Positions 3,886-42,272 of a stretch of 64,000 bases of DNA are shown one piece after another. The stretch covers positions 32,001 through 96,000 of the forward strand of contig CAWCKJ010000002.1 of NCBI GenBank assembly GCA_963796105.1. The letters are read 5' to 3'. A program made the translations under genes and the position numbers. A model generated the notes under the pieces. It searched no databases, was not told where the DNA came from, and saw only the letters and a program-made list of their open reading frames with translations. The DNA comes from a candidate division FCPU426 bacterium (GTDB taxonomy: Bacteria; Oederibacteriota; Muellerivitia; Muellerivitales; Muellerivitaceae). The stretch's first letter is position 1. Every line of letters begins with the position of its first letter.

Positions 3886-4458
3886 TCAGTACCGGCTTCT
3901 TTTTTTGATGAGTGCTTTCATGTTCCCGTTTGTACGGGTTTTACCGGTGAAGCTGAGAAAGCTTACTATCAGGCTGATAACGCAAAGAACGTACAAGGGG
4001 ATCAGTCTCATCGATCCCTTCGAGCCGGTCAGTTCCATCTTTTGTTTCATTTCATCCAGCCGGCCTTGTAATTTCCCCAATTGAGTCCTGAAGTCATTCT
4101 CTTCCCCGGCGCTCATCCGCGCCGAATCCCCGCTGTTTAGCGCCGGGACGGTTGACTTCGGGGCTTTTCCGCCGATCCAAATGACGGTTTTTCTGGAACG
4201 GTCTTTCTCAACCGTGAGTTTCTCCAAAAGATTTTTTGAGTTTTTATCATTCGGGTCCTTCTCCAGGGATTTTGCCGTCAAAAGGATGGCCTGGTCATAT
4301 TTGCCCCCCAAGTAGGCCGCCAAAGCCTGGTGGTACAAAATATTCGCCTCGGAGGAGCGCGCCGGGGAAGGCGCGGGTGTTTGGGCGTTTAGGAAACTAA
4401 AGCCGAATAACGCGATCCCCCCGGCCAAAGTCCATTGGATGAGGGGTGTTTTTCTCAT
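3886..4458 (-). CDS. secreted/membrane TPR-like protein
   Basis: Signal peptide (..FLNA|Q), TPR-like LYHQALAAYLGGKYDQAI, coiled coil and C-terminal TM; 4-bp overlap with the upstream gene. Confidence 0.7.
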   Translation of the reverse strand: MRKTPLIQWTLAGGIALFGFSFLNAQTPAPSPARSSEANILYHQALAAYLGGKYDQAILLTAKSLEKDPNDKNSKNLLEKLTVEKDRSRKTVIWIGGKAPKSTVPALNSGDSARMSAGEENDFRTQLGKLQGRLDEMKQKMELTGSKGSMRLIPLYVLCVISLIVSFLSFTGKTRTNGNMKALIKKRSRY

Positions 4459-5912
4459 GGGATCAGGCCCTCGTGGCGCGCGGATTCCAGCTTGCGCAAA
4501 AGGTCCCTGATCTCGTAATTATTTTGGTCCAATTCCTCGGCTTTCCTGGCCGCTTGAAGCGCTTCCTGGTAATGGTATTGGTTGAAGGATTGGAGGCCGT
4601 CCTCGTAGAAATGCCGGGCCTCCAGGCTCATGGGCCTGGGCGTGGTGGTCCATTCCTCGCAGGAATATTTTTCCTCATCCCCGACCAGGGAGCGCACCAC
4701 CAAGTGGTAACGGACCCCGTTTTTCGCCCCCCTTAAAAGGCAGTAATTGTTTTTTAGCGGGGCTTTTTTCGCCGGGTGGAAATCCTTCTCGCCGTCGGTT
4801 TTTAAATAAACCACATATCCATCCGCGCTGCTTCCCTGGGGTATTTCCCACTTTAAATAGACGCATTGGTCTCCCACATAGGATTCCACGACACGGGGTT
4901 TGGGGGTTGGTTTGGAGCCGGCGTTGTCGAATACCCAGCTGAAGGCGATCCTGTGGCTGTTTCCGAGGTTATCCGCGTGGTCCATGTAGGCGTAATCCAC
5001 CGACCAATGGGCGGAGCGGTAGCTGGCGCCCAGGCTGAAATCCCCCGGCAGGGTCACGAAGCTGGTGAAGCCGGCCCTGATTCCAAGGCGCCCGTCGAGG
5101 AACCAGTGCTCCAGGCCCGCCCGGACCCGGACGTATTGGTTGTTGAGAAGGGGATCGTTCGAGAGGGTCCAGGGCAAATCAAACTCCAGAAGCGTCTCGG
5201 GGTCGAAACAAAACGCGAGGCCGGGGGTCAGGATGGGAGGCACGGTCTGCTCGACGCCGGATTGGTCGAACCGGACCGAGGTGGAGAGGTCGGTTAAAAC
5301 CAGGCCCGCCCGGAACTCCATGCTGTTCTTCAGCGCCCGCCGGTACAGGAAGCCGATGTCGGCCGCCACGCCTTGCGACGTCCCATTGCCGGACCCGAGA
5401 TCGGCGTACAGGTAGCGGATGTTCAAACCGGTAAAAAGCCGGTTCTCCTGGGTGTCCATCAGGGGAATGGCGGCGGAGGCGGTGTACTGGTCCTCATGCG
5501 AGCCGGGAATATCGCTGTAAAACAAGTTGTTCGCGCTGATGCCCAAATGAATATTGTCCTGGAGTGGATACTCGAAGGAGAGGTAGAGATTCTCGTTTTT
5601 GCCGTTGAAAAGCGACCCGTAGTTGCCCTGTAGCTCGGGGCTGTCCAGTTGGGCCAGGCCCGCCGGGTTCCAGTAGGCCGCGCTCGGGTCATCCGCGGCG
5701 GCGGTGAAGGCCCCCGCCATCCCCATCGCGCGGGTCCCGACTCCCAGTTCCCCGCCCCTGTCGAAGAGGGCGTGGAGCGGGGAGATGAGTCCCAGGAAGA
5801 ACACCGCCGCGGCGGAAAATAACAAGAGCCTTTTTATCACGGGAGATCCTTTAAGCAATGTCAGCATATTCACCTTTTTCACCGTTAACGGGAAATCATT
5901 AATTTTATGCAC
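4455..5912 (-). CDS. PorV/PorQ-like (FadL-related) outer-membrane beta-barrel with C-terminal FN3-like and TPR domains; true start may be slightly downstream
   Basis: Signature [31 protein letters not shown]; barrel end VDYAY...[11 protein letters not shown]; then [20 protein letters not shown] (FN3-like) and a TPR. Confidence 0.8.
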
Positions 5913-8900
5913 TTGTTCAGTTTCTCATGAGTAGAGGGCTGAATTCCCTCCAGGACCAGAAGGTACAGGCCGGAAGAGACCCGATTCCCGTTCTTATTCC
6001 TCGAGTCCCAAACCGCGGCGCCGTGGCTCACGCTTAACTCGTTCACCCATTCCCCGGACAAGTCGTAGATTTTGATTGTACTTTGGCTGTCAGCCGGTAT
6101 GCCAGCGAAAGAAACGGTTATTTGAACGGGTTCATAACTCCGGACCAGGTTGGGCCTGGCCGTAAAGACGAGTTCATGGATAAGGCTGGGGCCGATATAG
6201 GCGTCCCTCGCCAGGGTGACCGTATTTCCACCAGGGGCGTGTTCCACCAGGAGGAAATGATAAAAGCCGTTCGGGACGGGGATTCCATTATCCGCGAAGC
6301 CGTTCCACACGGCGGCCGGCTGGCCGTTCAAGTAGATCGTGATCTGCCCGCCTGTTCCGGAGGGGTTAAGGGTGAAAGGCGACAAACTCATGGTGAAGGA
6401 TGTTCCCTCGGAGAACGGGATATTTCCGCAAAGGGAGGCCACTTTTTCCCCGCGCTCATCGAATATCTGGATGGTTTGGTCCCCGCAAACCGTGGCGCTG
6501 GGGGTCGGGGTGTAGGGAGACGTGAAGGTTGGGGTGGGAGTCACTGTCGGCGTCATAGTTTCGGTCGGGGTGTTAGTGACCGTCGGGGTGTAGGTCAATG
6601 TGGGTGTATTCGAGGGTGTATTGGTGATTGTCGGTGTGTTGGTGTCAGTGGGAGTGAGAGTAGGTGTTAGGGTTGCTGTATAGGTAGAGGTCGGCGTGTC
6701 GGTGGAGGTAAAGGTGTTAGTGGGAGTGTTCGTGATCGTCGGGGTATAGGTCAATGTGGGTGTTGGCGTAGCGGTGAGGGACGCAGTAGGGGTCATCGAA
6801 TCCGTTGGAGTGTTGGTAGGCGTTTCTGAGGGTGAATTCGTAGGTGTGTTGGTAGGAGTGTTCGTTGGGGTATTCGTCGGAGTATCGGTCCATGTGGGTG
6901 TATTCGAGGCTGTATTGGTGATTGTCGGGGTGCTGGTGGCTGTGGGGGAAAGAGTAGGTGTAAGGGTTGCTGTATAGGTTGAGGTCGGCGTGTCGGTGGA
7001 GGTTAAGGTATTAGTGGGAGTGTCCGTGATCGTCGGAGTATAGGTCCATGTGGGTGTATCCGAGGGTGTATTGGTGTTGGTCGGGGTGCTGGTGGCTGTG
7101 GGGGTGAGAGTGGGTGTAAGGGTTGCTGTATTGCTCGGGGTATCGGTAGGCGTATCAGTAGGTGTGTTTGTAGGTGTATTGGTGGGAGTTGGAGTGTAAG
7201 TCGGTGTGGTGGTAGGCGTATTTGTGGGAGTGTTAGTGGGTGTGTTTGTAGGCGTATCTGTTGGAGTATTAGTGGGAGTGTCAGTTGGTGTATTCGTCGG
7301 TGTGTCCGTTGGAGTACATGTGGGCGTGCTGGTAGGAGTGTTAGTTGGTGTGTTAGTCGGAGTATTGGTGGGTGTATCGGTAGGCGTATTGGTGGGAGTT
7401 GGAGTGTAGGTAGGTGTGACGGTAGGTGTATTCGAGGGTGTGTCAGTCGGAGTATTAGTGGGTGTATCCGTTGGAGTGTTCGTAGGGGTATCTGTTGGGG
7501 TATTAGTGGACGTGCCTGTGGGCGTGTCCGTTGGAGTAAAGGTCGGGGTGTTGGTGGGCGTATCCGTTGAGGTGTTGGTCGGAGTGTTAGTGGGTGTATC
7601 CGTTGGAGTATTGGTGGGTGTATTCGTTGGGGTATTAGAAGGTGTATTTGTTGGGGTATTGGTCGGAGTGTCAGTCGGCGTATTAGTGGGAGTGTCAGTT
7701 GGTGTATTCGTCGGTGTGTCCGTTGGAGTACTTGTGGCCGTGCTGGTAGGTGTGTCTGTTGGGGTGTTGGTCGGCGTGTCAGTTGGAGTGTTGGTCGGAG
7801 TATTAGTTGGAGTATTTGTAGGTGTGGCGGTAGGCGTATTCGAGGGTGTGTCAGTCGGAGTATTAGTGGGTGTATCCGTTGGAGTGTTCGTAGGGGTATC
7901 TGTTGGGGTATTAGTGGGTGTGTCTGTGGGTGTATTAGTGGGTGTGTTAGTTGGGGTATCAGTAGGTGTGTTTGAAGGTGTATTGGAGGGAGTTGGAGTG
8001 TAGGACGGTGTGTTGGTTGGGGTGTTCGTGGGTGTGTTAGTCGGAGTATCGGTAGGAGTGTCGGTAGGCGTATTAGTGGGTGTATTCGTTTGAGTATTGG
8101 TTGGGGTGTTAGTAGGAGTGTCAGTTGGGGTATCTGTTGGAGTATTGGTCGGCGTGTCAGTCGGAGTGTTCGTGGGTGTATTGGACGGGGTATTTGTAGG
8201 TGTGTCAGTCGGAGTATTAGTGGGTGTATCTGTTGGCGTGTAAGTAGGTGTGTTGGTAGGGGTGTTAGTCGGAGTATCGGTAGGAGTGTCGGTAGGCGTA
8301 TTAGTGGGTGTATTCGTTTGAGTATTGGTTGGGGTGTTAGTAGGAGTGTCAGTTGGGGTATCTGTTGGAGTATTGGTCGGCGTGTCAGTCGGAGTGTTCG
8401 TGGGTGTATTGGACGGGGTATTTGTAGGTGTGTCAGTCGGAGTATTAGTGGGTGTATCTGTTGGCGTGTAAGTAGGTGTGTTGGTAGGGGTGTTAGTCGG
8501 CGTATCGGTTGGAGTGTCAGTCGGCGTATTAGTGGGTGTGTCTGTGGGTGTATTAGTAGGTGTGTTAGTTGGGGTATCAGTAGGTGTGTTTGAAGGTGTA
8601 TTGGTGGGAGTTGGAGTGTTGGTCGGAGTGTCAGTCGGTGTATTGGTTGGCGTATTAGTGGGTGTATCTGTCGGGGTGTTGGTGGGCGTATCCGTTGGCG
8701 TGTAAGTTGGTGTATTCGTCGGAGTATCGGTAGGCGTATTCGTTGGGGTGTTGGTCGGCGTGTCAGTTGGGGTATTAGTCGGGGTATCAGTAGGTGTGTT
8801 GGTTGGAGTATCAGTTGGTGTATTGGTCGGCGTGTCTGTGGGCGTATTTGTAGGTGTGTCTGTTAGGGTGTTTGTGGGAGTGTCAGTTGGAGTATTAGTG

Positions 8901-11900
8901 GGTGTGTTAGTTGGCGTGTTAGTAGGTGTATTGGTTGAAGTGTTCGTGGGTGTATAAGTCGGCGTGTCGGTAGGCGTATCTGTTGGAGTATTAGTGGGAG
9001 TGTCAGTTGGAGTGTTGGTCGGAGTATTGGTTGGAGTGTTCGTAGGTGTATCAGTTGGGGTATTAGTGGGTGTGTCTGTAGGGGTGTCAGTTGGAGTATT
9101 GGTGGGTGTGTCCGTTGGAGTAAAGGTCGGGGTGCTGGTGGGCGTATCCGTTGGGGTGTTGGTCGGAGTGTTAGTGGGCGTATCAGTTGGAGTATTCGTT
9201 GGCGTATCTGTCGGGGTGTTGGTGGGTGTATTTGTTGGGGTATTGGTTGGGGTATTAGTGGGTGTGTTTGTAGGCGTATCTGTTGGTGTATCGGTTGGAG
9301 TGTTTGTAGGTGTGTTAGTTGGTGTGTCCGTCGGCGTATTCGTGGGAGTGTCAGTGGGTGTATCTGTTGGGGTATCTGTCGGTGTGTCCGTTGGGGTTGG
9401 AGTAGGTGTGTTGGTCGGAGTGTTCGTGGGTGTGTCGGTTGGGGTATCGGTAGGCGTGTCAGTGGGAGTATCGGTGGGAGTATTAGTGGGTGTGTTAGTT
9501 AGCGTGTAAGTTGGTGTATTCGTCGGGGTATTGGTAGGTGTATCTGTTGGCGTGTTCGTTGGTGTGCTGGTGGGAGTTGGAGTGTAGGTCGGTGTGTCAG
9601 TCGGAGTATTAGTGGGTGTATCCGTTGGAGTGTTCGTAGGGGTATCTGTTGGGGTATTAGTGGGTGTATCTGTGGGCGTGTTCGTTGGGGTGTTAGTGGG
9701 TGTGTCAGTTGGGGTATCTGTTGGAGTATTGGTCGGAGTATTTGTAGGCGTGTCAGTTGGGGTATTAGTCGGGGTATCAGTAGGTGTGTTGGTTGGAGTA
9801 TCAGTCGGCGTATTTGTGGGAGTGTTAGTGGGTGTATCCGTTGGAGTATTGGTGGGTGTATTTGTAGGTGTGTTTGTGGGTGTATTGGTCGGAGTATTTG
9901 TAGGCGTGTCAGTTGGGGTATTAGTCGGGGTATCAGTAGGTGTGTTGGTTGGAGTATCAGTCGGCGTATTTGTGGGAGTGTTAGTGGGTGTATCCGTTGG
10001 AGTATTGGTGGGTGTATTTGTTGGTGTGTCTGTAGGGGTGTCGGTTGGAGTATTAGTGGGTGTGTTTGTAGGTGTATTAGTGGGTGTGTCTGTGGGCGTG
10101 TCCGTTGGAGTAAAGGTCGGGGTGCTGGTGGGCGTATCAGTTGGAGTATTGGTGAGTGTATCTGTTGGGGTATTAGAAGGTGTATTTGTTGGGGTATTGG
10201 TTGGGGTATTAGTGGGTGTGTTTGTAGGCGTATCTGTTGGTGTATCGGTTGGAGTGTTTGTAGGTGTGTTAGTTGGTGTGTCCGTCGGCGTATTCGTGGG
10301 AGTGTCAGTGGGTGTATCTGTTGGGGTATTGGTTGCTGTGTAAGAAGGTGTATAGGTCGGGGTATCTGTCGGTGTGTCCGTTGGGGTTGGAGTAGGTGTG
10401 TTGGTCGGAGTGTTCGTGGGTGTGTCGGTTGGGGTATCGGTTGGAGTGTCGGTTAGTGTGTTTGTTGGGGTATCGGTAGGCGTGTCAGTGGGAGTATCGG
10501 TGGGAGTATTAGTGGGTGTGTTAGTTAGCGTGTAAGTTGGTGTATTCGTCGGGGTATTGGTAGGTGTATCCGTTGGCGTGTTCGTTGGTGTGCTGGTGGG
10601 AGTGTTAGTAGGCGTGTTTGTTGGAGTGTTCGTGGGTGTATCGGTTGGAGTATTGGTAGGTGTGTTTGTTGGGGTATTCGTAGGTGTATCGGTAGAAGTG
10701 TACGTCGGGGTGTTGGTGGGCGTGTCGGTAGGCGTGTCAGTCGGAGTGTTAGTGGGCGTATCGGTTGGCGTGTTCGTTGGGGTTGGAGTAGTTGTAGGTG
10801 TGTTGGTCGGAGTATCAGTGGGTGTATTAGTTGGGGTGTTAGAAGGCGTGGGCGTTTTGGTAAGGGTATAGGTTGGAGTGAAAGTCAAAGTAATGATGGG
10901 TGTTTTCGTAGGAGTGTTTGTTTTGGTTGGCGTATTCGTGATGGTGGGTGTGTTCGTAAAAGTGTTAACGGGTGTTAATGCGCAGTCATTCATGTTGAAT
11001 TTGTAAACCAGACCGTTGACGTTATCCGCCGCGAACCAGTTGCCGGCGCTGTCCGCGGCAACACCTTCGCTATCAGAGAAGGTGGAGGAAGTGCCCTGCG
11101 TGGTGATCCCGATCACGCTTCCGCTGGTGGTATAAATGCCCACATCATTAGATCCGTCGGACACGTAAACATAGGAAACGCCGCTGTTCGCGCCCAAGGC
11201 AATGAACTCAATTCCTTGCAAACCGTTGCTGGCATCCAATTGGAAAAGCAGGGAAGTGCCCGGGTTGTTCAACTGATAGACCTGCTGGGTGATGTCATCA
11301 CCCGCGTAAATACCGCTGCTGGCGTCAAAGGCCAAACCCGTAGGACTGCTGAAGGTCACGGGACTGCCGTCGGAGGGTCCGCCGAATTCACCTAAGGAGA
11401 CGCCGGAAGCGTTAAACAACGCGACCCTGTCGTTGCCGTTGTCAGCCACGTACACCGTGGTGCCCGCCGAATTGACCGCGATCCCCCAGGGGCTGTTGAG
11501 AACACTGCTCCCCCATTGAACGTTGCTGGAACCCGTCGTATGGCCTGTGCCATAGCCCCAGCAGACATCCACCTGGTTGTTGTTTGAATCCGTCACGTAA
11601 ACTTTTTCCGAGCCGTCAACGGCGATACCGAATGGGGAACTGCCGCCGTTTGATCCTCCCGGAACCGTCCAGCTGGCCACAGCGGCCCCGGTGGAAACGT
11701 TGAATACGTCGACACTGCTGTTGGCCCCATCCGCCACATAAAGGAGGGTGGCCGCCGAATCCAGGGCGGCGCCCCATGGGTCGGTGTCGTTGGACTGCCA
11801 CAGGCTGAGGCAATCCCACGCGGGCGGAAGGGTGGGGGTCAAAGTAGGGGTGCTGGTGAAGGTTTCAGTGACCGTATCGGTCGGTGTTGAAGTGGAGGTG

Positions 11901-13042
11901 GGGGTGTTAGAAGGCGTGTTCGTGGAAGTGAAGGTGTTTGTGGGGGTGTCAGTATCCGTGGAGGTGAATGTCAGTGTGGGGGTTCCAGTGTTCGTGGGGG
12001 TATTTGAGGGTGATTGAGTTCCGGTTGGGGTATTGGTCGGCGAGAGGGTGATGGTCGGCGTGGGTGTCGAGGTAAGAGTGGGCGTAAGGGTTGGGGTGGG
12101 GGTAAAGGTGGGAGTCAAGGTTTTGGTAGGCGTCAGGGTTGGCGTGGAAGTAAGGGTGGGAGTGGGTGTTCTGGTCGGGGTGGGGGTACAGCCTCCCGGC
12201 AGGATTTCAACCGCCTGGAGGTCCGCCTTCTCGGACCTGCCGAAGGTATATGTCATGTTGTTGGCGCCGAGGGTTGTGGTGAGCTTATCGTCTCCAGCTG
12301 TTGTTTTGTTGTTCTGCTCCTTCCATCTTTGGATTTGGCCGGTCCCGCTGGAGGTGATATTCCTTGAACCGGTGCTGTTGGCCACCATGACCATGCCCGC
12401 GATAATGCTTTGGCTGGTGGTAGTGGTCAAGGTGATGGTATGGGAGGTGCTGGAGGCCTGGTTTACGACTGCGCCGGTGGCGCTGATGGGGCCGTTGGCG
12501 CCGTTTTGCAGGACGTTCTGGTAGCAGACAGCACCAACGTGCAGGACTCGCGCGGTGGCGGGGGTCAGAGTCACTACTACGGAATGGGTGCCTGTGGGTG
12601 GGTTGATCAGGTACCAGGTTTCCAATGAGGTGGCGTTTGTCGCGTCCGCGTCCCTCCGGATTTTGATCAAGGCCGTCCCATTGAAGGTGATGGTGCTTAC
12701 CGAGGAGGTCGCGTTTGCGATGGAGATCTGGACCAGCAGGAGGTTCTCGGCGCCGGTAGTGGGAACAGTGGCGTTGAAGGTCGCGGTGGCAACGGTTCCC
12801 GTATAGGTTGCGGCGGCGCCGAACGCGATGGGGCATTGGGCTGAGGCTGAACGGGGAGATGTTAAACTCAAGAAAACGAAGAATGAATGAAGAATGAACA
12901 ATAAGGTTAACCGGCGGAAAAGGATGGGAAATGGGCGGAAACGGGATAAAGATAATGAACAATTAAAAAATCGGATTGGGACATGAAATACAGCCCCAGT
13001 ATCGAGTGCGGTTTTTTTGAAGTTCGTTGCTAAAAAAATCAT
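5885..13042 (-). CDS. giant secreted surface protein (2385 aa): N-terminal beta-rich domain, NHL propeller, very long Thr-Pro stalk, tandem FlgD-Ig/T9SS-like C-terminal domains
   Basis: Single open frame; signal ending SASA|Q; NHL blades; (TPT[N/D])n; C-terminal [11 protein letters not shown]...[18 protein letters not shown]. Confidence 0.9.
6495..10975 (-). repeat. 12-bp-period coding tandem repeat (TPTN/TPTD) about 4.5 kb long, with internal longer duplications
   Basis: Directly visible G/T-rich 12-nt periodicity; near-perfect 228-bp duplication at about 8034-8500. Confidence 0.95.
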
Positions 13043-13590: not shown

Positions 13591-16500
13591 TCAGTGTATG
13601 ATCGCTACTTTTCCGCTAAAAACTTTGTTACTTGTTTGAACACTATAAATATAAAGTCCTGCCGCCACAGGCGAGCCTGAAAGATTCTGTAACCCCCATT
13701 TCAGCGTGTTCAAGCCGGGATTGCCTGAGGTCTCGACCGAATAGACTTTCTCGCCCGTAATAGAGAAAAGGGACAACTTGATGGGGGAGGCGTCGGACAG
13801 GGTGATCCGGAATTGGATGGGCGACCCATTCTTGGAAATATTCGGCCAAGCGGCGGCGGAATTAGAAATGGGAAGCGAGGAATTTGGAGTTGAAGAAGCG
13901 GTAGGCGTGCAAAGTCCACGGACAGAGCGCGATTTTGCGTTGCTGATCAGGCTGGTAGTAACCGTATATTCATCCACAATCCAATTACCGCAATCCACCA
14001 CGAACAAATCACCGGCTGGGTCCAGGGTCAGGCAACTCGGGTTACTGAAGCCGTCGATCTCGCCCAGGAATACGCCCTGGTTGGAGGCGTAAACCACTCG
14101 GTTGTTGTCCCAATCGGAGATGTAAAGGTTATTCAGCGGGTCCACCCCGATACTCGCGCTGTACCCGCCCAGCGGCAGATTCCAGCCGTTGCCCGTCCCG
14201 TTGAAAGAATTCACGAGAGCGTAGGAGGGGTTGTACTCGCGAATGGATATGCCGGAATCATTGACGTAAACATCGACATAAAAGTTTCCTCCCGAATCCA
14301 GGGCCACATCCTCCGGGTAATCCGTCGCTCCGGCAGGGATAATCAGGCTGGGGGTGTCATCGGGCCAGGTAATGCGGAAAATCCCCGTGTCATCCGCTAC
14401 CAGGAGGTCCCCCTGGGGATCGATTTTGACACCATTGCACAAATAACAGGTCCCCTGACCGCTCCAGGTATAGTCCGGGGCGGGCGGGACAGAGCCGGAT
14501 ACCAACTGGTAACCCACCACGCCGGTCCCGTACTCTGGCACGTAAAGCTCGCCGTTGGAATCAATGGCCATGCTTCCCACGTAGCCGCCAGAGGTTTGGA
14601 TGTTGTAGAGCCAATTGCCCGAGGCGTCGTACACCGCGATCAGCCCTGCCTGGTTTCCGTCGTTCACCGCGAGGAAACCCCCGCCCGCCGCCGCGCTCCA
14701 GGGGTTCGTGTCCAGGTGGGTCGGGATGAAAGAGCCGGTCAGGCTCCAGTAGCCGGAAGGCGTCTCAAGAACTGTCGGAGTGGATGTGGGAGTGACCGTT
14801 GGGGTTAAAGACAAAGTCGGGGAATAGGTAATGGTATTGGTCAGGGTAGCCGTTGGGTCCAAAGTTGGGGAATTGGTTAAAGTCGGAGTCAGAGTGGGCG
14901 TTGGGTCAGGGGTGGCTGAGTTCGTCGAGGTGTAAGTCAGGATCGGCGTTGGGTCCAAAGTGGGGGTATTGGTTGACGTTGGCGTCAGAGTCGGCGTGGG
15001 GTCAGGGGTGGGGCTGTTAGTCGAGGTGTAAGTCAGCGTCGGCGTCGGGTCCAAGGTCGGAGTATTGGTGGATGTAGGGGTAATCGTCGGCGTCGCTGTG
15101 CTGGTACTGGTATTGGTGTTCGTCGGGGTGCGGGTGGCGGTCGGCAAGGTTCCAGTGGCGGTGGCGGTTGCGGTGGGTGTCCTGGTTGGGGTTCGCGTGC
15201 GGGTCGGGGTCCTTGTGGCCGTGGGTGTCCTGGTTGGTGTTGCGGTGGAAGTCGGCGTTCTCGTGTTGGTAGGTGTGGGCGTCGGGGAATAAGTCGCGGT
15301 CGGCAAAGTGCCGGTGGCGGTGGCTGTCGCGGTGGGAGTGGCGGTGAAAGTCGGGGCCGCGGCGGCCAGGGCGCTCACGAGCGCCGGCTTGGGGCTTCCC
15401 AGGCCCGTGGCCAGGTCATATCCGGCGACAGCCTGGTAAAGGGCGGGATTCGTCGCCCAGTAGTTGTTGGTGCTTCCGTCGGCCACGTCCCGGAAATTGT
15501 TGTAATAGGGCGTAGGGCTGGCGGCCAGTGTGTAAAGGTAGGGGTTGGCGAAACCCACGTTGCCCTTGCCCGCGGAAGCGGACTGCTGGTTGGCCAGGGC
15601 CATCACGCCCGCCCAAAGGGGCGCCGCGGCGCTGGTGCCCCCGGTGCAGTAATCCCCGGCGTGGCTGGTCCCGCCGTAGAAATATCCGGAGAGATTGTCC
15701 GCCACCATGGAAACATCGGGAAGGTTACGGTAGCTGGTGGAGCCGTGGTTCTGGGCGTTGATGAAAGGCACTTGGTAGGTGGGGATCGTCAGGGGAGTCG
15801 GGCCGGAACAGACGCCACCGCCTCCGACCAGGTTGGCCGCTGGCGTACGGGTGGCGGAGGGATGGTCGTTCCAGGTCGTCTCGCTCACGTAGGTGCCCAC
15901 GGGCGTGGGATTTCCACCCGTGCCGGTCCCGGAGGTGGTGAGGGCCGTCCCGCCCACGACCGTCATGAGGGAAGTCTCGTAGATGGGCTGGGGTACGGCG
16001 GTAGCGGGTCCTCCCGCGACATAGGCCCCCAGGTCGCCCACAGCCTGGAAGAAGGCTTGCCCCTGGGCCGCGTATTGGGCGAACACGTTGGCGATGTTGG
16101 TGTCGGTGGCGCCGGTCCAGGTCCAGGAGGAGCTGATCTGCATGGCCTTGTCGTCAGTCGCGATATGGGTGAGTATCTGGACCGGTTGGACCAGGAGCCC
16201 GAAGTTGGCGCAGTTCCTCGGCTGGCTGTTGGGTCCCTCGTAAACCAGGATGGCGGCCTGGGGTGACATGCTCATGACCATGTCGATGTCCAGCACGACC
16301 TCGTCCTCGGCGCAGGTGGTGGGGGTCTGGGCGGTGTAACCGGGCTCCGTCACCGCCGTGATGGAGGGGACGGCGATGCCAGTCTCAGTCGAGTAGCTCG
16401 TGATATCCGAGAGGGTGTAGTTGTCGAACTCGAAAAGAGCGACGGTTTGTCCAGCGCCGGTCTGGGTCACGCCCGGCAGGTAGGCGTTGCGGAAGTCGTT

Positions 16501-17217
16501 GCCGATATAGGTGTTGGAAGTGCCGATACATCCGCTGGGCCCTGTGCCGTTCTGGGGGGCGGCGGTCCCGCCCGAGGGCCTGGGGCCGGACGAGGGGATC
16601 TTGCCGGTGAAGTCGTTATGCCGGTAAACCTCGTCGTTATCCAACCCGCTGATGTGGAGGATCGGTACCCCCAAGTCCACCGAGGGCTCAGTGTCGGGGG
16701 CGTAGAACCGGCCCCCGTCCGGGCGGATGTATTGGTTCAAGCGCACATGGAAGGCCGCCTCGATTTCCTGCGCGGTCCCGCTGAAGGCCACCAGCAGGCG
16801 GTTGGAGTAAGTCTGGGTGATATCAAGGCCATGAGCCTGGAGGAAGGTGAGGATCGCCTGGTAATCTTCCTCGGTTGCGCCGAAACTAACGGCGAACTGG
16901 GCTGGGGTGAGGAATTTCCGGAACTGGGGGCTGGAGGGATCGTACAACTCATTCAGGAGGGTTTGGAGCGCGTCGGCGTTCCGGAGGGGAAGACCGACAG
17001 CCAGGTTCAAGCGCTGGTTTCTTGGCAGGGAACCGGACGGCTTCAAGCTGGACCAGGAGGACTGGAGATGGCCGCTCAAGCGCTGTTGGCCGAGGGATTG
17101 GGCGAACAATGAAGAAGAAAGGAAAATGAACAATGTACAATGAACAATTAACAATGGGCGGAAACGGAGGAAAGAAAGTGGGGGAGGGTTCAATTTTTTA
17201 AGATTCGAGAAACTCAT
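13591..17217 (-). CDS. secreted S53 (sedolisin/kumamolisin-like) peptidase with propeptide, Thr-Pro linker, NHL propeller and C-terminal sorting-like domain
   Basis: Pro-kumamolisin-like propeptide (LPLRN..LYDPSSPQFRKFLT); catalytic E-x3-D (EVVLD), GD oxyanion (AVGDLG), GGTSAAAP Ser, GYDLATGLGSP; start taken at ATG 17217. Confidence 0.92.
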   Translation of the reverse strand: MSFSNLKKLNPPPLSFLRFRPLLIVHCTLFIFLSSSLFAQSLGQQRLSGHLQSSWSSLKPSGSLPRNQRLNLAVGLPLRNADALQTLLNELYDPSSPQFRKFLTPAQFAVSFGATEEDYQAILTFLQAHGLDITQTYSNRLLVAFSGTAQEIEAAFHVRLNQYIRPDGGRFYAPDTEPSVDLGVPILHISGLDNDEVYRHNDFTGKIPSSGPRPSGGTAAPQNGTGPSGCIGTSNTYIGNDFRNAYLPGVTQTGAGQTVALFEFDNYTLSDITSYSTETGIAVPSITAVTEPGYTAQTPTTCAEDEVVLDIDMVMSMSPQAAILVYEGPNSQPRNCANFGLLVQPVQILTHIATDDKAMQISSSWTWTGATDTNIANVFAQYAAQGQAFFQAVGDLGAYVAGGPATAVPQPIYETSLMTVVGGTALTTSGTGTGGNPTPVGTYVSETTWNDHPSATRTPAANLVGGGGVCSGPTPLTIPTYQVPFINAQNHGSTSYRNLPDVSMVADNLSGYFYGGTSHAGDYCTGGTSAAAPLWAGVMALANQQSASAGKGNVGFANPYLYTLAASPTPYYNNFRDVADGSTNNYWATNPALYQAVAGYDLATGLGSPKPALVSALAAAAPTFTATPTATATATGTLPTATYSPTPTPTNTRTPTSTATPTRTPTATRTPTRTRTPTRTPTATATATGTLPTATRTPTNTNTSTSTATPTITPTSTNTPTLDPTPTLTYTSTNSPTPDPTPTLTPTSTNTPTLDPTPILTYTSTNSATPDPTPTLTPTLTNSPTLDPTATLTNTITYSPTLSLTPTVTPTSTPTVLETPSGYWSLTGSFIPTHLDTNPWSAAAGGGFLAVNDGNQAGLIAVYDASGNWLYNIQTSGGYVGSMAIDSNGELYVPEYGTGVVGYQLVSGSVPPAPDYTWSGQGTCYLCNGVKIDPQGDLLVADDTGIFRITWPDDTPSLIIPAGATDYPEDVALDSGGNFYVDVYVNDSGISIREYNPSYALVNSFNGTGNGWNLPLGGYSASIGVDPLNNLYISDWDNNRVVYASNQGVFLGEIDGFSNPSCLTLDPAGDLFVVDCGNWIVDEYTVTTSLISNAKSRSVRGLCTPTASSTPNSSLPISNSAAAWPNISKNGSPIQFRITLSDASPIKLSLFSITGEKVYSVETSGNPGLNTLKWGLQNLSGSPVAAGLYIYSVQTSNKVFSGKVAIIH

Positions 17218-17456
17218 ATAACCTTTTTCGTTAAGCCGAAACAACGATTGCTCAAATGGCGGGGCTGCGTGTCAGCGCGCCCCTAAACCGGGTACTTTAT
17301 AAAGATAAATGAAATAACAATCAAGACCAAAAAGGCGGAAATTTGGCGGTTTTTCAATGGATATAACAACGAAAACAACGTTGAGTACAGGCCCGAGGAA
17401 CTGGAACAATATTTGAAGTCAGTAACCCATTATGAAATGCCCGCAACCTAGTATTT

Positions 17457-18505: not shown

Positions 18506-18869
18506 GCCCCAAAATAATCAAGTCTCTAAATGCCGATAAGCCGAGAACAGTGGGACTTAAGCCAGGAACCGGGAGGATAACCTGCCCACATTGCTGGTGG
18601 CCTGTCCTGAGTGTCACTGGCCAGCCACTTTAACCCCCCTGGCCGCCTACTTTGCCCCCCCTCTTTTGGGCACTTCGAGGGGTGCCTGTTTCGGGGACTT
18701 CGACCCCTGCCTTGCGGGGCCTCTTTTTTAGATTAATTTAGACCCATCAAACTCCTTTCACAAGATGCGTTTTGCTTCCCCAACATTGGATGATACGAAG
18801 TCCCGCGCAAATCCCGTAACCAATAGGCGCAAGATTGCACGAATAAGACAGCATCGAACGATGGGTTTC

Positions 18870-19649: not shown

Positions 19650-19662
19650 ATATGCTTCCTCC

Positions 19663-22119: not shown

Positions 22120-22248
22120 ACCAAAGCTCACGTGAAGTTATATAAAATGACCTCCAAACTTTTAATGCGGGGAACGACAAATTATGGCGCTTTGGGTTAT
22201 AATGACTTTCAAAGAGATAGTTTGTTAACTGATTTTAGGGGCGAAATC

Positions 22249-26606: not shown

Positions 26607-28407
26607 TTCAATCTCCTTTAAATTTTTGTTTGTCATTGCGAGCTTCGAACTTAGAAGCGAAGCAACCCCAGTCGGTGGTGGTTTTGATTTGTGTTGTTTT
26701 TGCACTTTCCTTTGTAATTTAAAACTTAAAATTCAAAATTTATAATTCAAGTTTTCAATGAATAATTGCAATTTTTCCAGTGGAAACTTGATTGTCCGCT
26801 TGAATCTTATAGATGTAAAGCCCCGCAGCTACTTTTGATCCCGATTGGTTCTTCAAGGCCCATTCCAACATGTTCACGCCAACGCTTCCAGAGATGGTCT
26901 CTGAATAAACCAAATTGCCCGTAAGGGAATAAAGGTTTAATTTGATCGAGGAAGCATCGGTCAGCGTTATTTTGAATTGAATAGGCGTTCCGTCCTTCGA
27001 AATGCTCGGCTCGGTTATAACGGCCAAGTTTGGTTCCGGTATTGGTGTGGCAATCGCGGCGGTGGGTGATGGAGTAGGTGTCGGCGTCGGCCTTTCGGTG
27101 CCCCAAACCGCGTTCATGATGATGCCGCCCCCATTGCCGGGTGCGTAAACATCCACAAGTTCATTTCCGCAATCAACTACCCAAGTTTGCGTGACGCCGG
27201 AATTGTTGAAAGCCAAGCAACTTGGATTGTTGTATAAAGTGGCTGGTGAACTGGGACCGAGTTGGGTTAAAGCCCCCATGTAATTACCGGTAGGTGAGGC
27301 GTAAACCACCCGGTTATTGTCCCAGTCGCTGATGAAAAGATTATTTTGGGCGTCGATGATGAGGCTGGCGCTATAAGTACCCAATGTTGGGGCAGTGGTG
27401 GAATAGGCTGGACCCGTGGGCCAGCTTGATATCCCATTGCCATTGAAGCCAGATTGGTAAACACCTGAGGAGTTGTACTGACAGATGGATGTCCCGGAAT
27501 TATTGACGTAATAATCGACATAATAATTTCCATTTGTATCCCAAGCCACGTCCTGCGCGGTTAACCCAGTTGGCGGGGAGATTTTTAATGATTGGGTGTC
27601 ATTTAAAACGGAAGTGACATAAACACCAGTATCATCAGCGATTAACAGACTCACAGGTGATGATGGGCTATTGAGCCTGACACCATTACATAAAAGGGCA
27701 TTGCTATCCGAAGTATATTCGTAGTCAATTTTGGAAGGCGTAGAGGTAAGTTGATAAGAAATCACGCCGTAGCCATATATGGGGACATAAAGAATATGGT
27801 TGGTATCAATGGCCATACTGCCAAGAAAGCCATTGGCGGCGGCAGGCGTAATAGTCCCAGGGGTAAAACTATAGTCAAAAGTACCAGTAGGGGAATACAC
27901 ATAAATATTACCATTTGCATCCCCGTCATTGACCGCGATGTAAGCCCCATCCGTCACAGCGCTCCAAGGATTAGTATTGCTGTTAAAAGTTGTTTGGGCT
28001 TCGGGCATGAAAACGGTAACCGCTGAACCTGCCCAAGCACTAATGGGTATGGGGGTGGGCGTGCAACCAGCCGCAGAAGCAATTTCAACTACCTGAATAT
28101 CAGACGATGTAGGTACGGAAAAAGTGTAGGACATAATATATGAATTGGTAGTGGTAGTAGGCATATCATCGCCTTCACTCGTTCTACGTGTAGTTGGTCT
28201 TTCCTGCCATCTTTGTTGTTGAGTACCGCTGGGGGTAATTTTTGGGGTACCTCCACTTGATGCCATACACAGAGCTGCTAAAAGGCTGTAATCGGCATTA
28301 GTTGGTATAGTGAAACTTGGGGTGGTACTAGAAGGGTAAGGAGAATTGGTTACATTAAGAATGGGATTAGTTTGTGCTACATTCTGGTACAAAAGGACTC
28401 CGAAATT

Positions 28408-29393
28408 CATGCTTCTGTATTAAGTGACCCTTGAAATAAAGGAATACATAGGTATACTGTCCGCTACGGGAGGTGGTACATGAGCTACCAGCGGATGAAA
28501 AGCATTAAAATTCTGAGGAAAATCCACACGGAAGAAGAAGCCCGCCAATGGGTGTGGAGATGCCGTTTCGGCGGGAAAGACTTTGTTTGTCCCCAATGTG
28601 AGGGCGAAAGCTTCTGGCAACACCAGGCCAAGCCTGAAGTGAGGGAATGTGACTATTGCCGGAAACGTCTTCGGCTTCGCGCCGGGACGATTTTTGAAAG
28701 CTCCAAGCTGCCTCTTTTAACCTGGGTCAGGGCCATCAGTTTGATGATGCAGGGCAAACGGGGTATTTCGGCCCTGGAACTGAAGCGGCATTTAAATCTT
28801 TCGGATCATTCGGCATGGCTTCTATTGCATAAGATCCGGGAAGGTCTTAGGCAAAAGGACGAAAGCTATACTCTAAAGGGCGTCATTGAGTTGGATGGGG
28901 CGGTTTTTGGGAAAAAGGCCAAGGAAAACCAAGTGGAAGTCTTGGTGGCGGTGGAAAGCAAGGAATGGGTGGATGAGAATGGTTGCAAGAAGGAAAAAGC
29001 GGGTTTTGCCAAGGTGAAGGTAGCTATGGAAACCAAGTGGGAGAGCCAGGAATTCGTGAATCAGACTATGGAAAAAGGCTCTTTCCTCAACACAGATGCT
29101 TCGCCAGCCTTGCGTGAACTCAAAGGAGTGGAGGCAGACTACCGGGTGATGGCCAATGACCCGAAAGAGTTGGAAAGTTGGTTGCCCTGGGTACACCGGT
29201 TCATTTCCAACGCCAAGGCCTGGATCATTGGAACTCATCATGGCGTTGATGCTAAGTATTTAGGCCGGTATCTAAGTGAATATGCCTATCGGTTCAACCG
29301 TCGTCATGATCCCGATTCCTTATTTCACCGTGCTTTGACCGCATGTGCCTTAGCAAAACCCATTACAGCACGGTCACTTTGTGCATAAGCATA
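28408..29393 (+). mobile_element. complete IS1595-family (ISXO2-like) insertion sequence (986 bp)
   Basis: Imperfect IR ATGCTTCTGTATTAAGTGACC / GGTCACTTTGTGCATAAGCAT; 8-bp TSD CCGAAATT at 28400-28407 and 29394-29401. Confidence 0.95.
28480..29388 (+). CDS. IS1595-family transposase
   Basis: Zn ribbon CPQC..CDYC, AGTIF, IELDG, NTD, GTHHGV..YLSEYAYRFNRR. Confidence 0.95.
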   Translation: MSYQRMKSIKILRKIHTEEEARQWVWRCRFGGKDFVCPQCEGESFWQHQAKPEVRECDYCRKRLRLRAGTIFESSKLPLLTWVRAISLMMQGKRGISALELKRHLNLSDHSAWLLLHKIREGLRQKDESYTLKGVIELDGAVFGKKAKENQVEVLVAVESKEWVDENGCKKEKAGFAKVKVAMETKWESQEFVNQTMEKGSFLNTDASPALRELKGVEADYRVMANDPKELESWLPWVHRFISNAKAWIIGTHHGVDAKYLGRYLSEYAYRFNRRHDPDSLFHRALTACALAKPITARSLCA

Positions 29394-30245
29394 CCGAAAT
29401 TAAGTTGACAAGCGTTATTGAGATTAACTGCAATAGTATTTGGACCGCTTGGATTAAGAACATAATAAGTTGCAAGCGCATCATCTGAATCAATATATGG
29501 GGTTGAGGCCGGGATCACACCAGAAGTACTACCATTATCTGTCACTGAATTAATAATTGGGGCGGCAGTACTTTGGAGGGCTATTTGAATGACCAATAAA
29601 GTATTTAGAGGACCTGAGGTAACAGTATATGGGACTGAACCACCCAAAACGGTAACGCCACTACTTGTAAATGTAACACCAGAAACGAATGAAGGAACAC
29701 AACTTTGCCCCTTCGCCTCCTGGGGTATCGACATGATTAAAAATAGCGCGGGGAGGAGCAGGGCTCCCAGGCTCCGGGATAGGTTCTTTTTAGACCTGAA
29801 TAAAGACTTCATAGTCAATCTCCTTTAATTTACCGACCCTGTTTAGTGGTTTCTCGGTTTGTTACTCCCCTGAATAATGACCTTCTTTAATTCAACATTC
29901 AAAATTAAGAATTCAGCATTGTTTTTACAGTCTCTCGGCTGTTTCTGGTGGGTAATGAAGAGGTGTCGTCCATACCAAGCCGCATCAATATTTCACGTAG
30001 TAAAGTCTATCCTTGGATTAGGGTTTCCGCTAGGTTTAAATATGAATAATCTAAATAACAATTAATGTTAAATGAGAAACTTAACGTGCAGTTTACAAAT
30101 GACAATAAAAATGATCACAAAGTGGGGATTTAAAAGAACAAAGAGAATGCGGAATGAAAGTTGAACAATGGAAAAGAATTGGGTTTTAAAAGATCGATAT
30201 GATAATGTAAATATAATATTTATATTATCATGATATAATAAACCT

Positions 30246-31547: not shown

Positions 31548-31558
31548 TGTATTTCCGC

Positions 31559-32279: not shown

Positions 32280-35200
32280 TTAATGAATTACGGCTATCTT
32301 GCCGCTGAAAGTTTGGCTCCCCGCCTGGATCTTGTAAATATAGAGCCCCGCCGCTATTGGCGCCCCGGACTGGTTTCTTAGGTTCCAAGTCAGCGTATTC
32401 AATCCCGGTTGTCCCAGGAAGCTTACGGAATAAACCAGCTCGCCCGTGAGGTTGTAGAGGTTCAATTGGACCGGCGTGGCTCCTGTGAGCGTGAGGCGGA
32501 ATTGGATGGGCGTCCCGTCCTGGGAAATATTCGGCCAAGCGGCGGCGGAGTTAGAAATGAGGAATGAGGAGTTAGGGGTGGGAGACAAGGTATAAGTAGG
32601 AGTTAGGAGTGGGGAGTTAGGAGTTAATGTCAAAGTCGGGGTGGCTGTGTTGTAAGGTGTCGCGGTGTAAGAGGGCGTAGCTGAAGGCGAAGCGGTGAGG
32701 GACGCCGTAGGCGTCATCGAATCCGTCGAGGTGGGCGTGGAAGTGGATGTGCTTGTGGATGTGGGGGTAGGCGTAAAGGTGCAGGTCGAAGTGGGGGGCG
32801 CTGGGGTGCAGGTGGAAGTGGGTGTTGGGGAAGGGGTAGGGGTGGGTTCCAGCCTGACGCCGAAAACCACGTTCATGATCCTGCCGCCCGTGGGGGCGGA
32901 GGTGAACTCGTCCACTTCCTTGTTCCCGCAGTCCACCACGAACAGGTTCCCAGTGGGGTCGTAGGCCAGACAGCTCGGGTTATAGAAATTCGTGACACCC
33001 GCCCCGTCGATCTCGCCCAGGTAGCCTCCCTGGTTCGCGGCGTAAACAACCCGGTTGTTATCCCAGTCGGTGATGAATAGATTTCCCTGCTTGTCCGTCA
33101 CGATCCCGCCGCTGTAGCTACCGAGAGCTTTGGGCCATCCTGTCCCGTTGAAGGAATTAACGAGGGTATAGGATGAGTTGTATTCGGCGATGGAGACGCC
33201 GGAGTTGTTGAGGTAATAGTCCACGAAGTAGTTGCCGTTCCCGTCGAGGGCCACGTCCTCGCAGTAATTGGTGCTCGAGGCGGGGATGATGTTCGATCCG
33301 CTGTCATCCGCCCAGGCCAGGGACCAGATTCCGTTGTCATCGGCCACCAGCAGGTTCCCATTGGGGTCGATCCTGACGCTGTTGTCCAGCACGCAATTTC
33401 CAAGTCCTGTCCAGGTGTAGTCGTAAACCGCCGAGCTGGCGCCGAGTTTGTAGCCCACCACGCCTGTCCCGTACTCGGGGATGTAAAGCTCGTCGCTGGA
33501 ATCAATGGCCAGGCTTCCGGTGTATCCGCCGGTGGTGGGGATGGTATAGAGCAGGGTCTGCCCGGTGATGTCGTACACGTACACGTTGGAGTCCGCGTCG
33601 CCGTCGTCCACCACGAGGAAACTCACCCCGTCGGAGGCCACGCTCCAGGGGTTGGTGGTGCCAGCCGGGCTGAAAACGTTGGGCACGTAACTGGTGGTCA
33701 GGTTCCAAGAGCCGATGGGGATGGTGGTCTGAGTGGAAGTGACGGTGGGCGTGAAGGAGGATTGCGCTATGGCCGTCTGGGTCTCCTGCGCCTGGTAAGT
33801 GGCGGTGGGGGCGGTGGTTCCGGTCATGTTGGGGGTAGGGGTATTTGTTTTGGTGAGAGTGGGCGTGAGCGTGTTCGTGGGTGTGTTGGTCACGGACGGG
33901 GTGTAGGAATAAGTATAGGTATAGGTAAAGGTATTGGTGTAAGTAGGAGTAGCAGTGGGGGTATTGGTGGGTGTGTTCGTCGGTGTCGCGGTTTTGGTGG
34001 GAGACAAAGTAATAGTGGGGGTGCTAGTTGGGGAAGGCGTCGGGGTGGCCGTCGGGTTGCAGTTGGCCGCGTAAAACTCAACCGCCAAAATGTCTGAAAT
34101 GGAAGCGCCGCTTAAAACGCAGGTCACAGGGTAGCTGTTGATTGCCGTTGCGGTACGGTAGTTTCCCTCGGTGGAAAAGCCGGTATTGGAAAACGACCAT
34201 TCCGGGGTTTCCCCGGTTCCGGTCAAGGTAAAGGTCCTGCTGTTATAGACGTTGAATAATCCCACCACGATGGAGTTTTGCTGGCTTGTGGAAAAGGGCA
34301 TGGATGGATTTGCCGTTGAGGCAAGAACCGTCGAGGCGGAGTTGCCGAGGGGAGCGATTGGGTCCATCCCCGTGAAAACCATGGCGCCGATATCCATGGT
34401 TTGGGCGGCGGAAGCCGTGATCACGATGTTCCGGGACGCGCCGAGACCGGTCATTTGGGAACTGGGCAGGTAAAAGATGAAATTCTCGTGGCCGTTTGCG
34501 GTATCCGTGACACCCAAGGCGGGCACCAGGTTGACATTGTTGTAAGTGGCGGTGTTGATGGTGGCGGTAGTGTTTTTTATGGAGACTTGGACCACCAGGA
34601 GGGGGTTGGTTACTGGGGTGGCGATATTCAAGGCGAGAGTGTAGGTGTTGACGCTCCCGGGGAACGCGCTGGTCACGGTGGAGAAAGCGGATTGGCAGGT
34701 GACATAAGCCGTGTCCGTGGGTGTCTGGGTGGGAGTGGATGTATTCGTGGATGTCGGGGTATTGGTAGGCGTGGAAGTTTTCGTCGGGGTTAGGGTGATG
34801 GTGGGCGTGGCTGTTTTGGTGGGGGTAAGAGTGATGGTGGGCGTGGAGGTATTCGTGGAAGTGATAGTCGGCGTCGAGGTTTTGGTCGGCGTGGGAGTGA
34901 TGGTGGGTGTGTTGGTGATCGTGGGCGTCGAGGTCCAGGACGGCACGAAACCCACGCAGGAGTTGGCGTAAACCTGGTAGCTAAGTGTGCTCGCCGCGCC
35001 AGCTGTCCCGTTGGCCGTGAAGGGGTCCTGCATGCCATTATAGGGCCCGCCCGAGATGCCCTCGGAGTAGCTGGTTCCTGATCCGGTGCAGGCGACCGTG
35101 CCCGTGGTGCCGGTCACGTAAAACGCGAGCCAGTAGCTTCCGGCCGGAAGGGCAGTCGCGGGAACCGGCAGGGTATTCAATCCGGCGGTCACGGCAGTCT

Positions 35201-36293
35201 GCTGGGTTTGCACGAGAAGCCTTCCAGGGGTGTTGCCGGTGACGTTGGCGTAGATCCCCAGGATGGCCGAGACCGGTGCGGTCGCGGCGGTCATGCTGAT
35301 GGCCATGGAAGTGACGGTGGCCCCGTTGGAGAAACTGTAAAGGGAGCCAGCCTGCGTGTTGATCCCATTGGCGCTAGGGGTCGTGCCGGGAACAGCCGGA
35401 CCCGTGGTTTGGACCCAGGTGCAGACGGGAGTGGCTGTGGCGGTGGCGCAAGCCCCGGTGTAGGAGATCCACTGCTGGTTGCTCGACCCGCCGGTGGCGG
35501 CGGTGAATCCGTAATAGACCATGGTCTGGTTCTGGAAGACGCTTCCCACGAGGTCTCGGTTGTAAACCATGGTGCGGGCCGTGCCGCCCGCGTCCACGAT
35601 CGTGAAGGACAAAATCTTGTTCACCGCGTCCCAGGTCACGGTGACTGGATCGACCCCGCCGTTCAGGATCGTGGCGGGGAACACGTAGGGACAGCCGGTG
35701 ACTGAGGCGCTGGGTGTGACGTAGGGGCAGACGGCCGCGGTGGTCACGCCGTTCTCGAAAACTTCCAGTTGCCCCGTTTTGAAGGTTGTGTCGTAAGTGT
35801 TGATGGCGAAAGCCACCGAGGGAGAGACGGGGTTGGTGCCGGAGTAGCCCAGGCAGGCCCCGCAGGGTCCGCCGTTTCCGCTGAGGGCCGAGAGCCCGTT
35901 CTGGTCTTTCTGCAGGACGAAAGCGATCCCGTCGGCTCCACCCGCCGCGCCCAGGCTGGCGTTGTAGGTCTGGGTGAAGCCTTGGCTGAGGTCAATCTGC
36001 GTGGAGTTCCAGCAGGCCCCGCTTTGGCTCGCCACGTTTTGGGTGAGATAGACGGTCGTGCCGATGCTGGTGGCGTCCCCAACCAGGTTCCAATTGGGAC
36101 AGACTTGGGCGGAAGAGAAAGAGGAAGAGAACAAAATAATGAAGAATGAATAATGGGCAATGGACAATAAGGACAAACGACGAAGAAGAACGGGGAATGA
36201 AAGGCAACGGCGAAGAAAAGCAGGGCGATGGAAAACGGACAATCGGGACGATTGGTGACGAGAAAGTTTTTTCCTGCCCGGCGACAAAAACAT
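32280..36293 (-). CDS. secreted surface protein (1337 aa): L-type (legume-like) lectin domain, further beta domains, Thr-Pro linkers, NHL propeller, C-terminal sorting-like domain
   Basis: [31 protein letters not shown] lectin signature; signal FSSA|Q; ends GKIAVIH. Confidence 0.9.
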
Positions 36294-42271: not shown

Positions 42272-42272
42272 A

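Follow-up and report, generated by a model that had tools for sequence, protein, structure and literature searches.

We identified a predicted surface-display system in a 64,000-nucleotide stretch (hereafter, the window) of a candidate division FCPU426 bacterium (assembly GCA_963796105.1, contig CAWCKJ010000002.1, positions 32,001 to 96,000). Five of the encoded proteins, a 2385-aa giant and four smaller paralogues, end in immunoglobulin-like (Ig) C-terminal domains (CTDs), and the gene of the giant is followed by that of a β-barrel protein. The five tailed proteins are probably the cargo of a route resembling that of type IX secretion systems (T9SS), in which a SprA-type pore and PorV-type carriers would work with no known motor, and in which the giant would have the barrel of the window as a carrier of its own and as its anchor on the cell surface. 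We favour a type IX-like route because the CTDs pass the sorting-domain model TIGR04183 and fold like the CTDs of PorZ and PorU, and because SprA, PorV-like barrels and CTDs occur phylum-wide. We regard the barrel as probably dedicated to the giant because the order of the two genes is conserved in 17 of 18 orthologous loci.

The four paralogues carry the C-terminal motif exactly as an earlier, sequence-only reading of this DNA had written it, and 35 of the 90 columns of their CTD alignment are invariant. Within that alignment the domains share 53-63% identity with the first of them; they lie at 13594-13863, 23301-23570, 26758-27027 and 32283-32552, all on the minus strand. When the C-termini were searched with the Por secretion tail model, as had been suggested, all four passed TIGR04183 (T9SS type A sorting domain, cut-off 23 bits) with 28.7, 25.5, 29.2 and 31.4 bits, respectively. 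The giant (5885..13042, minus strand) consists of a head domain (residues ~54-284), a Thr-Pro linker, an NHL-type propeller, a 1500-aa Thr-Pro stalk (residues 686-2192) and a tandem Ig tail. It reaches 19.7 bits on TIGR04183, under the cut-off, and passes FlgD_ig (PF13860, 31.9 vs 27 bits), in agreement with the related FlgD/CTD-like end that had been ascribed to it. Its 200-aa C-terminal module (5888..6487, minus strand) comprises a domain that is FlgD-like by sequence, then the CTD proper (~5888-6178), and the AlphaFold2 (AF2) model of these last 200 aa shows two Ig sandwiches (pLDDT 88.5). The last sandwich is closest to the CTDs of PorZ and PorU, which take ranks 1-3 in Foldseek and reach a VIA Z of 11.7 (root mean square deviation 1.9/2.5 Å over 87/88 residues); the next unrelated structure scores 9.9, the NucA CTD 9.5 and the RgpB CTD 9.2.

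A single SprA homologue of 2017 aa is encoded elsewhere in the host genome (C3:212289-218342), with a CTD gene next to it. A SprA profile built from nine members of the phylum matched only SprA of Flavobacterium johnsoniae in the PDB (6H3I/6H3J, E 5.5e-42). Across the phylum, SprA-like proteins were found in 77 of 81 genomes (7 of them over the TIGR04189 cut-off), PorV-like proteins in all 81 and CTDs in 43 of 43; neither SprA nor CTDs occurred in 14 control genomes, and a comparison of the SprA homologue with plasmids gave no match. Directly behind sprA, in several genomes of the phylum, lies an FN3-rich CTD protein (here C3:218356-223212) which perhaps serves the pore as a structural partner. 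A gene 7 kb upstream of sprA, inspected by eye, is one that we take to be Skp-like.

The host genome (G000, 96.8% complete) encodes far more of these components than the window. It has 18 PorV-family genes (19 match rows), most of them with periplasmic-type tails made of FN3, tetratricopeptide repeats (TPR) or, in three cases, OmpA peptidoglycan-binding domains, the latter resembling a fusion of PorP and PorE. TIGR04183 gives 60 matches, 47 over the cut-off. A profile derived from the window retrieves 81 CTD proteins, and 119 after iteration (9% of the genome), of which ~10 are doubtful (long-branch or anti-sigma-like); the reversed-sequence control of the profile gave 0 matches. At C4:1230132, C12:82702 and C12:92905, each beside a cargo-barrel locus, there are small proteins whose N-termini look anti-sigma-like by eye and which end in a CTD-like Ig domain. 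A tandem pair of PorV-family genes (C3:423845-427589; 726 and 524 aa, FN3 tail) is a conserved feature of the phylum. Often flagellar rod genes come directly after it, and in some families sprA is 15-20 kb away; the pair is a candidate for a general carrier or for a flagellum-linked barrel.

Judged by gene order, the giant and the barrel are a conserved, putative cargo-carrier pair. Orthologues of the barrel occur in 14 of the 17 other genomes of the family that were sampled, and we counted 18 orthologous loci from 17 genomes (19 were examined, one being excluded as a flagellar-linked paralogue). In 17 of the 18, the upstream gene encodes a Thr-Pro protein whose C-terminus is a CTD of the same tandem type as that of the giant. 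These tails are 27-51% identical to that of the giant over ~200 aa, with one visible for only 63 aa at a contig end and the most distant one closer to another tandem class of the host genome; cargo length varies from 1426 to 2385 aa where complete. Within the host genome, 10 of the 18 PorV-family genes directly follow a CTD gene on the same strand, compared with ~0.5 expected (CTD genes make up 2.7% of 4332). A second gene of the giant's CTD class (C3:552622-555813) lies at the purA-rsfS site, where relatives keep a cargo-barrel pair. It has no barrel beside it, and this orphan may share the barrel of the window.

The barrel gene (4455..5912, minus strand) had been described as PorV-like with unusual FN3 and TPR extensions, and the AF2 model (pLDDT 87) bears this out: a 14-strand barrel (~residues 48-330) with an N-terminal plug is followed by an FN3 domain (340-423) and a TPR hairpin (430-481). 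By sequence the protein is best placed in the PorV/PorQ family and is not a strict PorV orthologue. It scores 88.1 bits on the PorV/PorQ model NF033709 over model positions 9-325 (cut-off 90; 90.7 bits when summed). In the PDB, PorV is the sole barrel matched by its profile (among the best 60 of 70 sequences), with an E of 2.9e-5, and PorV (6h3i_F) is also the top Foldseek match to the model. The overlap claimed between the genes of the giant and the barrel exists for the longest open reading frame (ORF) only, which begins with GTG at 5912; homologues begin ~15-30 residues later, and their starts place the probable one at 5867 or 5840, 18-45 bp after the stop of the giant. A 4-bp ATGA overlap is found between the barrel gene and the next one (3886..4458, minus strand). 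The latter encodes a 190-aa protein with a signal-like N-terminus, one TPR (TPR_2, E 4e-4) and a C-terminal transmembrane (TM) helix at residue 152 with a basic tail, which is likely an inner-membrane-anchored periplasmic partner of the barrel. A homologue search with this TPR-TM protein returned the protein itself only, and its homologues were found solely via the compared loci.

In the mechanism that we propose, the cargo would first be exported by Sec, after which its CTD would be captured by a carrier barrel within the SprA homologue and the carrier-cargo complex would be released laterally. Being uncleaved, the cargo would be retained on the barrel, and the stalk would raise the head domains. 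The giant would use the adjacent barrel, while the four paralogues would use a shared carrier encoded elsewhere. The periplasmic tails of the barrels and the membrane-anchored TPR protein are conceivable candidates for a replacement energy link.

Several observations weigh against this scheme. In F. johnsoniae, cargo loading needs no energy and release needs the motor, and without the motor the cargo is trapped in SprA (PMC10994853). A motor-less route would therefore need an energy source, and none was found: the four TolQ/ExbB loci of the host adjoin TonB-dependent receptor-like genes rather than T9SS genes. The host SprA stays under the TIGR04189 cut-off, its best piece scoring 117 vs 200. 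The barrel sits at the NF033709 cut-off and scores 28 vs 250 bits on the PorV equivalog NF033710, and its fold does not separate PorV from FadL (VIA Z 30.4 for PorV, 30.0 for the FadL-family CymD and 26 for BamG). One of the 18 orthologous loci (genome G015) has no cargo upstream, and a TPR-TM homologue lies directly downstream of the barrel in just 8. Finally, the compared loci are kin and not independent events, so that their agreement shows inheritance as a unit.

Food for thought is how such a system would be energized. The genome searches that had been suggested recovered the SprA homologue and no motor, ring or sortase. For the motor, GldM was over the cut-off in 0 of 43 genomes of the phylum and GldL in 0 of 3 (controls 23/25 and 2/2); for the ring, GldN was over the cut-off in 0 of 43 and GldK in 0 of 3 (controls 7/7 and 2/2), GldK giving partial matches only, of at most 63 bits vs a cut-off of 350. 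The controls came from the class of a genome labelled Chitinophagaceae, and the phylum sample included a single-contig genome. Hidden Markov models (HMMs) of GldK, GldL, GldM and GldN built from the controls and run with --max on all host ORFs returned nothing under E 0.09; the HMMs rested on 13-14 sequences of one class. The PorU sortase (C25, PF01364) was found in 0 of 15 genomes of the order and 7 of 43 in the phylum (controls 7/7), and the best PorP-family score (TIGR03519) in the host genome was 17 bits vs 90.55 (controls 2/2). These negatives are to be read as 'not found' and not as proof of absence.

The same route might run on a motor too divergent to detect, either remote GldLM/KN homologues or a borrowed Tol/Exb-type 5:2 motor, and would then be a full T9SS in disguise. 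The need for a motor in the release step of F. johnsoniae (PMC10994853), the four non-flagellar TolQ/ExbB genes of the host, the fast evolution of GldL and GldM, the narrow basis of the HMMs and the slight incompleteness of the host genome all speak for such a motor. We nevertheless consider it unlikely, as no match appeared in the 43 genomes of the phylum, the single-contig one included, and GldM was likewise found in 0 of 31 genomes of another SprA-bearing phylum; moreover, in the nine loci examined, sprA has no conserved unknown membrane genes beside it. The core of the sequence-only reading, a T9SS-like route outside the Bacteroidota, stands in that the CTDs match T9SS models, the barrel is of the PorV family and a SprA homologue is present without a detected motor. 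As predicted from its genes, the system of the window resembles the outer-membrane module of the T9SS and is not a member of the T9SS proper, since motor, ring and sortase were not found.

The five genes and the barrel had also been read as one array, and we rejected the window as a single array. In the fullest version of that idea, the whole 32-kb stretch would be one display unit and the barrel would carry all five cargo proteins, which we regard as quite improbable. All seven genes do share a strand within 32 kb, two paralogues have the head domain of the giant (36-44% identity), and orphan type B cargo is described as able to share one shuttle (PMC12618676). Against this, the CTD tree (a short alignment) groups the CTDs of the four paralogues with that of a fifth gene lying 8 kb outside the window (support 99) and the giant with one other host gene (support 95), and only the giant's CTD class accompanies the barrel in relatives. 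The propeller-CTD cassette of the paralogues has five full-length copies in the host genome and expanded only there among the 32 genomes of the order that were searched; the best match elsewhere is 46% identical and lies in the same genus, on a contig other than that of the barrel. Insertion sequences (IS) and unrelated genes break up the stretch, and the locus accounts for a small share of the repertoire encoded across the genome. Because the giant's CTD class travels with the barrel and the cassette is confined to the host genome, the window appears to combine an old two- or three-gene unit with a young paralogue expansion.

The four paralogues are, as far as their sequences tell, a recent, IS-riddled expansion with a CTD class other than that of the giant. 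To them the term 'polymorphic' does apply: they share a cassette of ~400 aa (NHL-type propeller, short Thr-Pro linker and CTD; 44-59% identity), ahead of which the N-termini vary between a pro-kumamolisin/S53-like peptidase, an L-type lectin and an unnamed head domain. The 1217-aa paralogue (13591..17244, minus strand; TIGR04183 28.7 bits) has a pro-kumamolisin domain (PF09286, 95 bits), an S53-like peptidase, a Thr-Pro stalk, the propeller and the type A CTD; inspected by eye, it carries residues that we take to be of the catalytic type, in what is presumably an S53-like motif. The 914-aa paralogue (23298..26042, minus strand; 25.5 bits) has two copies of the giant's head domain before propeller and type A CTD. 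The 1337-aa paralogue (32280..36293, minus strand; 31.4 bits) begins with an L-type lectin (PF18483, 91.6 bits, cut-off 78.3), followed by further beta domains, Thr-Pro linkers, propeller and type A CTD. The remaining one (26755..29818, minus strand; 29.2 bits) is split by an IS1595-family element into a 5' piece (29363-29818) and a 3' piece (26755-28410) with propeller and type A CTD; the 551-aa ORF is this 3' part, and by arithmetic both pieces share one frame. The IS1595 element itself (28408..29393, plus strand; 986 bp, PF12762) was delimited by its IS limits and an 8-bp flanking duplication, and ~30 near-identical copies occur in the host genome (blastn).

Between the paralogues lie, in addition, an IS21-family element, a toxin-antitoxin-like pair and an AAA gene. 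The IS21 element (istA, istB; 18611..21383, minus strand; PF01695, PF00665) has at least 9 further near-identical full-length copies in the host genome. Beside it, at 18079-18505, a 43-bp unit is repeated ~10 times (91% matches), and similar arrays occur at several further genome sites, some of them adjoining IS21 copies. The pair at 22132-22865 (plus strand) encodes a nucleotidyltransferase and a HepT-like RNase, as in MNT-HEPN toxin-antitoxin systems. Nearer the start of the window, at 1226-2221 (minus strand), a lipoprotein-like NHL propeller is distantly related to that of the paralogues and lacks a CTD.

Another question regards the job of the barrel. It might be a FadL- or BamG-like protein with a different role (a hydrophobic-solute channel, an accessory of the BAM machinery or a post-export scaffold), linked to the giant by regulation or history, while a general carrier does the exporting. 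The tie between PorV and FadL-family structures would fit, as would BamG, with which FadL-fold barrels are described as able to anchor surface proteins outside the T9SS (PMC12611786), and the conserved barrel pair ahead of flagellar rod genes. We hold this to be a poor explanation with a small chance of being right. The FadL Pfam model PF03349 reaches 18.1 vs 29.7 bits, on residues 61-97 (the N-terminal plug) only, as opposed to a match over the whole NF033709 model, and no FadL is among the best 60 of 70 PDB sequence matches. Adjacency to CTD genes in 10 of the 18 paralogues, and a pairing with one CTD class that persists across family and order, also speak against it. The outcome that the sequence-only reading had set against itself, tails without any T9SS or FlgD match beside a plain FadL transporter, differs from what was found, namely CTDs that match T9SS models and a barrel that is PorV-family by sequence. 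Least probable is that the Ig tails are no export signals and that the proteins take a different way out of the cell or remain in the periplasm: FlgD-like Ig domains do occur internally (14 of 133 profile matches) and in the periplasmic tails of barrels, and the host has two secretins, yet 119 of the 133 matches are terminal, CTDs, PorV-like proteins and SprA co-occur in nearly all genomes of the phylum, and the secretins lie by eye in type IV pilus-like and Tad-like clusters, on which ground export of the type II secretion kind was rejected.

The origin of the translocon was approached through two trees. In an RpoB tree of 28 genomes, the marker-gene check that had been proposed, the host falls outside the Fibrobacteres-Chlorobi-Bacteroidetes (FCB) clade (SH-aLRT 100), and its being one of the Bacteroidota is thereby rejected. 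It groups (91) with its GTDB phylum mates, from which its own class is distinct (66% RpoB identity); two of these mates cluster (100) with a genome named Ca. Goldiibacteriota. An affiliation of the host with the FCPU426 lineage would be in keeping with PMC7031533. The SprA tree (30 sequences, 698 trimmed columns, LG+G4) is unrooted and sparse. In it, ten SprAs of the phylum form one side of a branch (100) and twelve FCB SprAs another (100), with three motor-bearing SprAs beside Ignavibacteria-like sequences. That the motor-bearing class recently passed its SprA on to the phylum was rejected, as a topology joining the SprAs of the phylum and the motor-bearing ones failed the approximately unbiased test (p 3.4e-7). 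SprA homologues are also present in genomes labelled Elusimicrobia, Aerophobetes, Poribacteria, Coatesbacteria, Nitrospirota and several FCB lineages; in this wider survey 33 of 33 genomes matched (one in short pieces only), a biased sample picked for a PorV-like match. In databases, such proteins from Elusimicrobia already carry the label 'PorV/PorQ family'.

The SprA tree agrees in outline with the RpoB tree and is compatible with an old motor-less translocon; the alternative is repeated loss of the motor. The system had also been suggested to be 'reduced', which is doubtful, as an old state without a motor accounts for the SprA tree better than does a loss from the Bacteroidia system. We would go further only tentatively, in a proposal that we can well imagine to be wrong: SprA pore, PorV-type carriers and Ig-tail address may be an ancient, motor-independent display system of many non-FCB phyla, to which the Bacteroidia later added the gliding motor. 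Up to 18 carriers with FN3, TPR or OmpA tails would then read a code of CTD classes, and the giant, the barrel and the TPR protein would be one dedicated channel, with release powered by an energiser not yet described or achieved through tethering alone.

The nearest known system is the SprA-PorV translocon with type A cargo (F. johnsoniae PDB 6H3I, 8GL6; Porphyromonas gingivalis Sov/PorV). It is similar in having a SprA homologue, a putative carrier with a PorV/FadL-type fold, type A-like 7-strand Ig CTDs and Sec-type N-termini. Here, in contrast, no GldLM motor, GldKN ring or PorU was detected, the host is outside the FCB group, SprA is shorter (~2000 aa compared with 2400) and has an FN3-like region at its N-terminus, and 18 carriers with FN3, TPR or OmpA tails take the place of one PorV. 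Type B cargo with PorP/SprF (SprB-SprF, PG1035-PorP-PorE) likewise has a carrier directly downstream, as described for the cognate PorP/SprF (PMC12618676), a ~200-aa C-terminal module and giant repetitive cargo. Retention without PorU, which is predicted here, and an OmpA-domain tether, here in paralogues of the barrel, are further likenesses, PorP-PorE tethering having been described (PMC9143113). However, the CTD here is type A/FlgD-like (PF13585 CHU_C 20.9 vs 27 bits; TIGR04131 not listed at E 0.1), the carrier is of the PorV family rather than PorP (TIGR03519 stays under its cut-off), and the tether domains are fused to the barrel. FadL-family proteins and BamG have a 14-strand barrel with an N-terminal plug and a near-equal structural score; they differ from the barrel of the window in that the latter does not pass Pfam FadL, has periplasmic C-terminal domains and is tightly linked to CTD cargo.

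A translocon and carrier without a recognisable motor are already in print within the Bacteroidetes: in gene sets 'incertae sedis', Sov, PorV, PorU, PorQ and PorZ are present and PorK, PorL, PorM, PorN and PorP are not listed (PMC7323717). Those sets are within the FCB group and keep PorU, whereas the system proposed here is outside it, in an order in which no C25 protein was found. We found no description of such a system outside the FCB group in the open literature; subscription papers and supplements may hold one.

As for gene expression, the claim that canonical sigma70 promoters set this lineage apart was not confirmed (one weak site in the 800 bp scanned vs 1.0 expected by chance). The use of Shine-Dalgarno sites holds genome-wide, with GGAG/AGGA/GAGG peaking at 300 at position -10 vs ~10-20 elsewhere (1663 ATG genes). 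Further along the window, 39869-51991 (plus strand) encodes a ketosynthase pair, a FabA-like protein, reductases, a phosphopantetheinyl transferase, an FAD oxidoreductase, a methyltransferase-domain protein and two hybrid kinases. Together these form a small cluster of the fatty-acid/polyketide type, and its product may be a signal molecule.

The T9SS has been called exclusive to the Bacteroidota or absent outside the FCB group (PMC12618676, PMC11285876, PMC4793230, PMC5445135), and it has been inferred to have first evolved within the gliding machinery (PMC12635249). If a whole phylum outside the FCB group has retained SprA and many carriers and devotes up to 9% of a genome to CTD cargo while lacking motor, ring and sortase, and if its SprA is not Bacteroidia-derived, this would call into question the exclusivity, the need for a motor and the origin in gliding. 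Two testable questions follow: what, in the absence of GldLM, releases the carrier-cargo complex from SprA, and how the many carriers divide type A-like CTDs between them. For the latter, the giant-barrel pairs offer a ready set of cognate and non-cognate combinations. The finding also suggests how polysaccharide degraders of the Goldbacteria group could display enzymes on their surface. If our interpretation is correct, export by this route proceeds without the gliding machinery, which may also have played no part in its origin.

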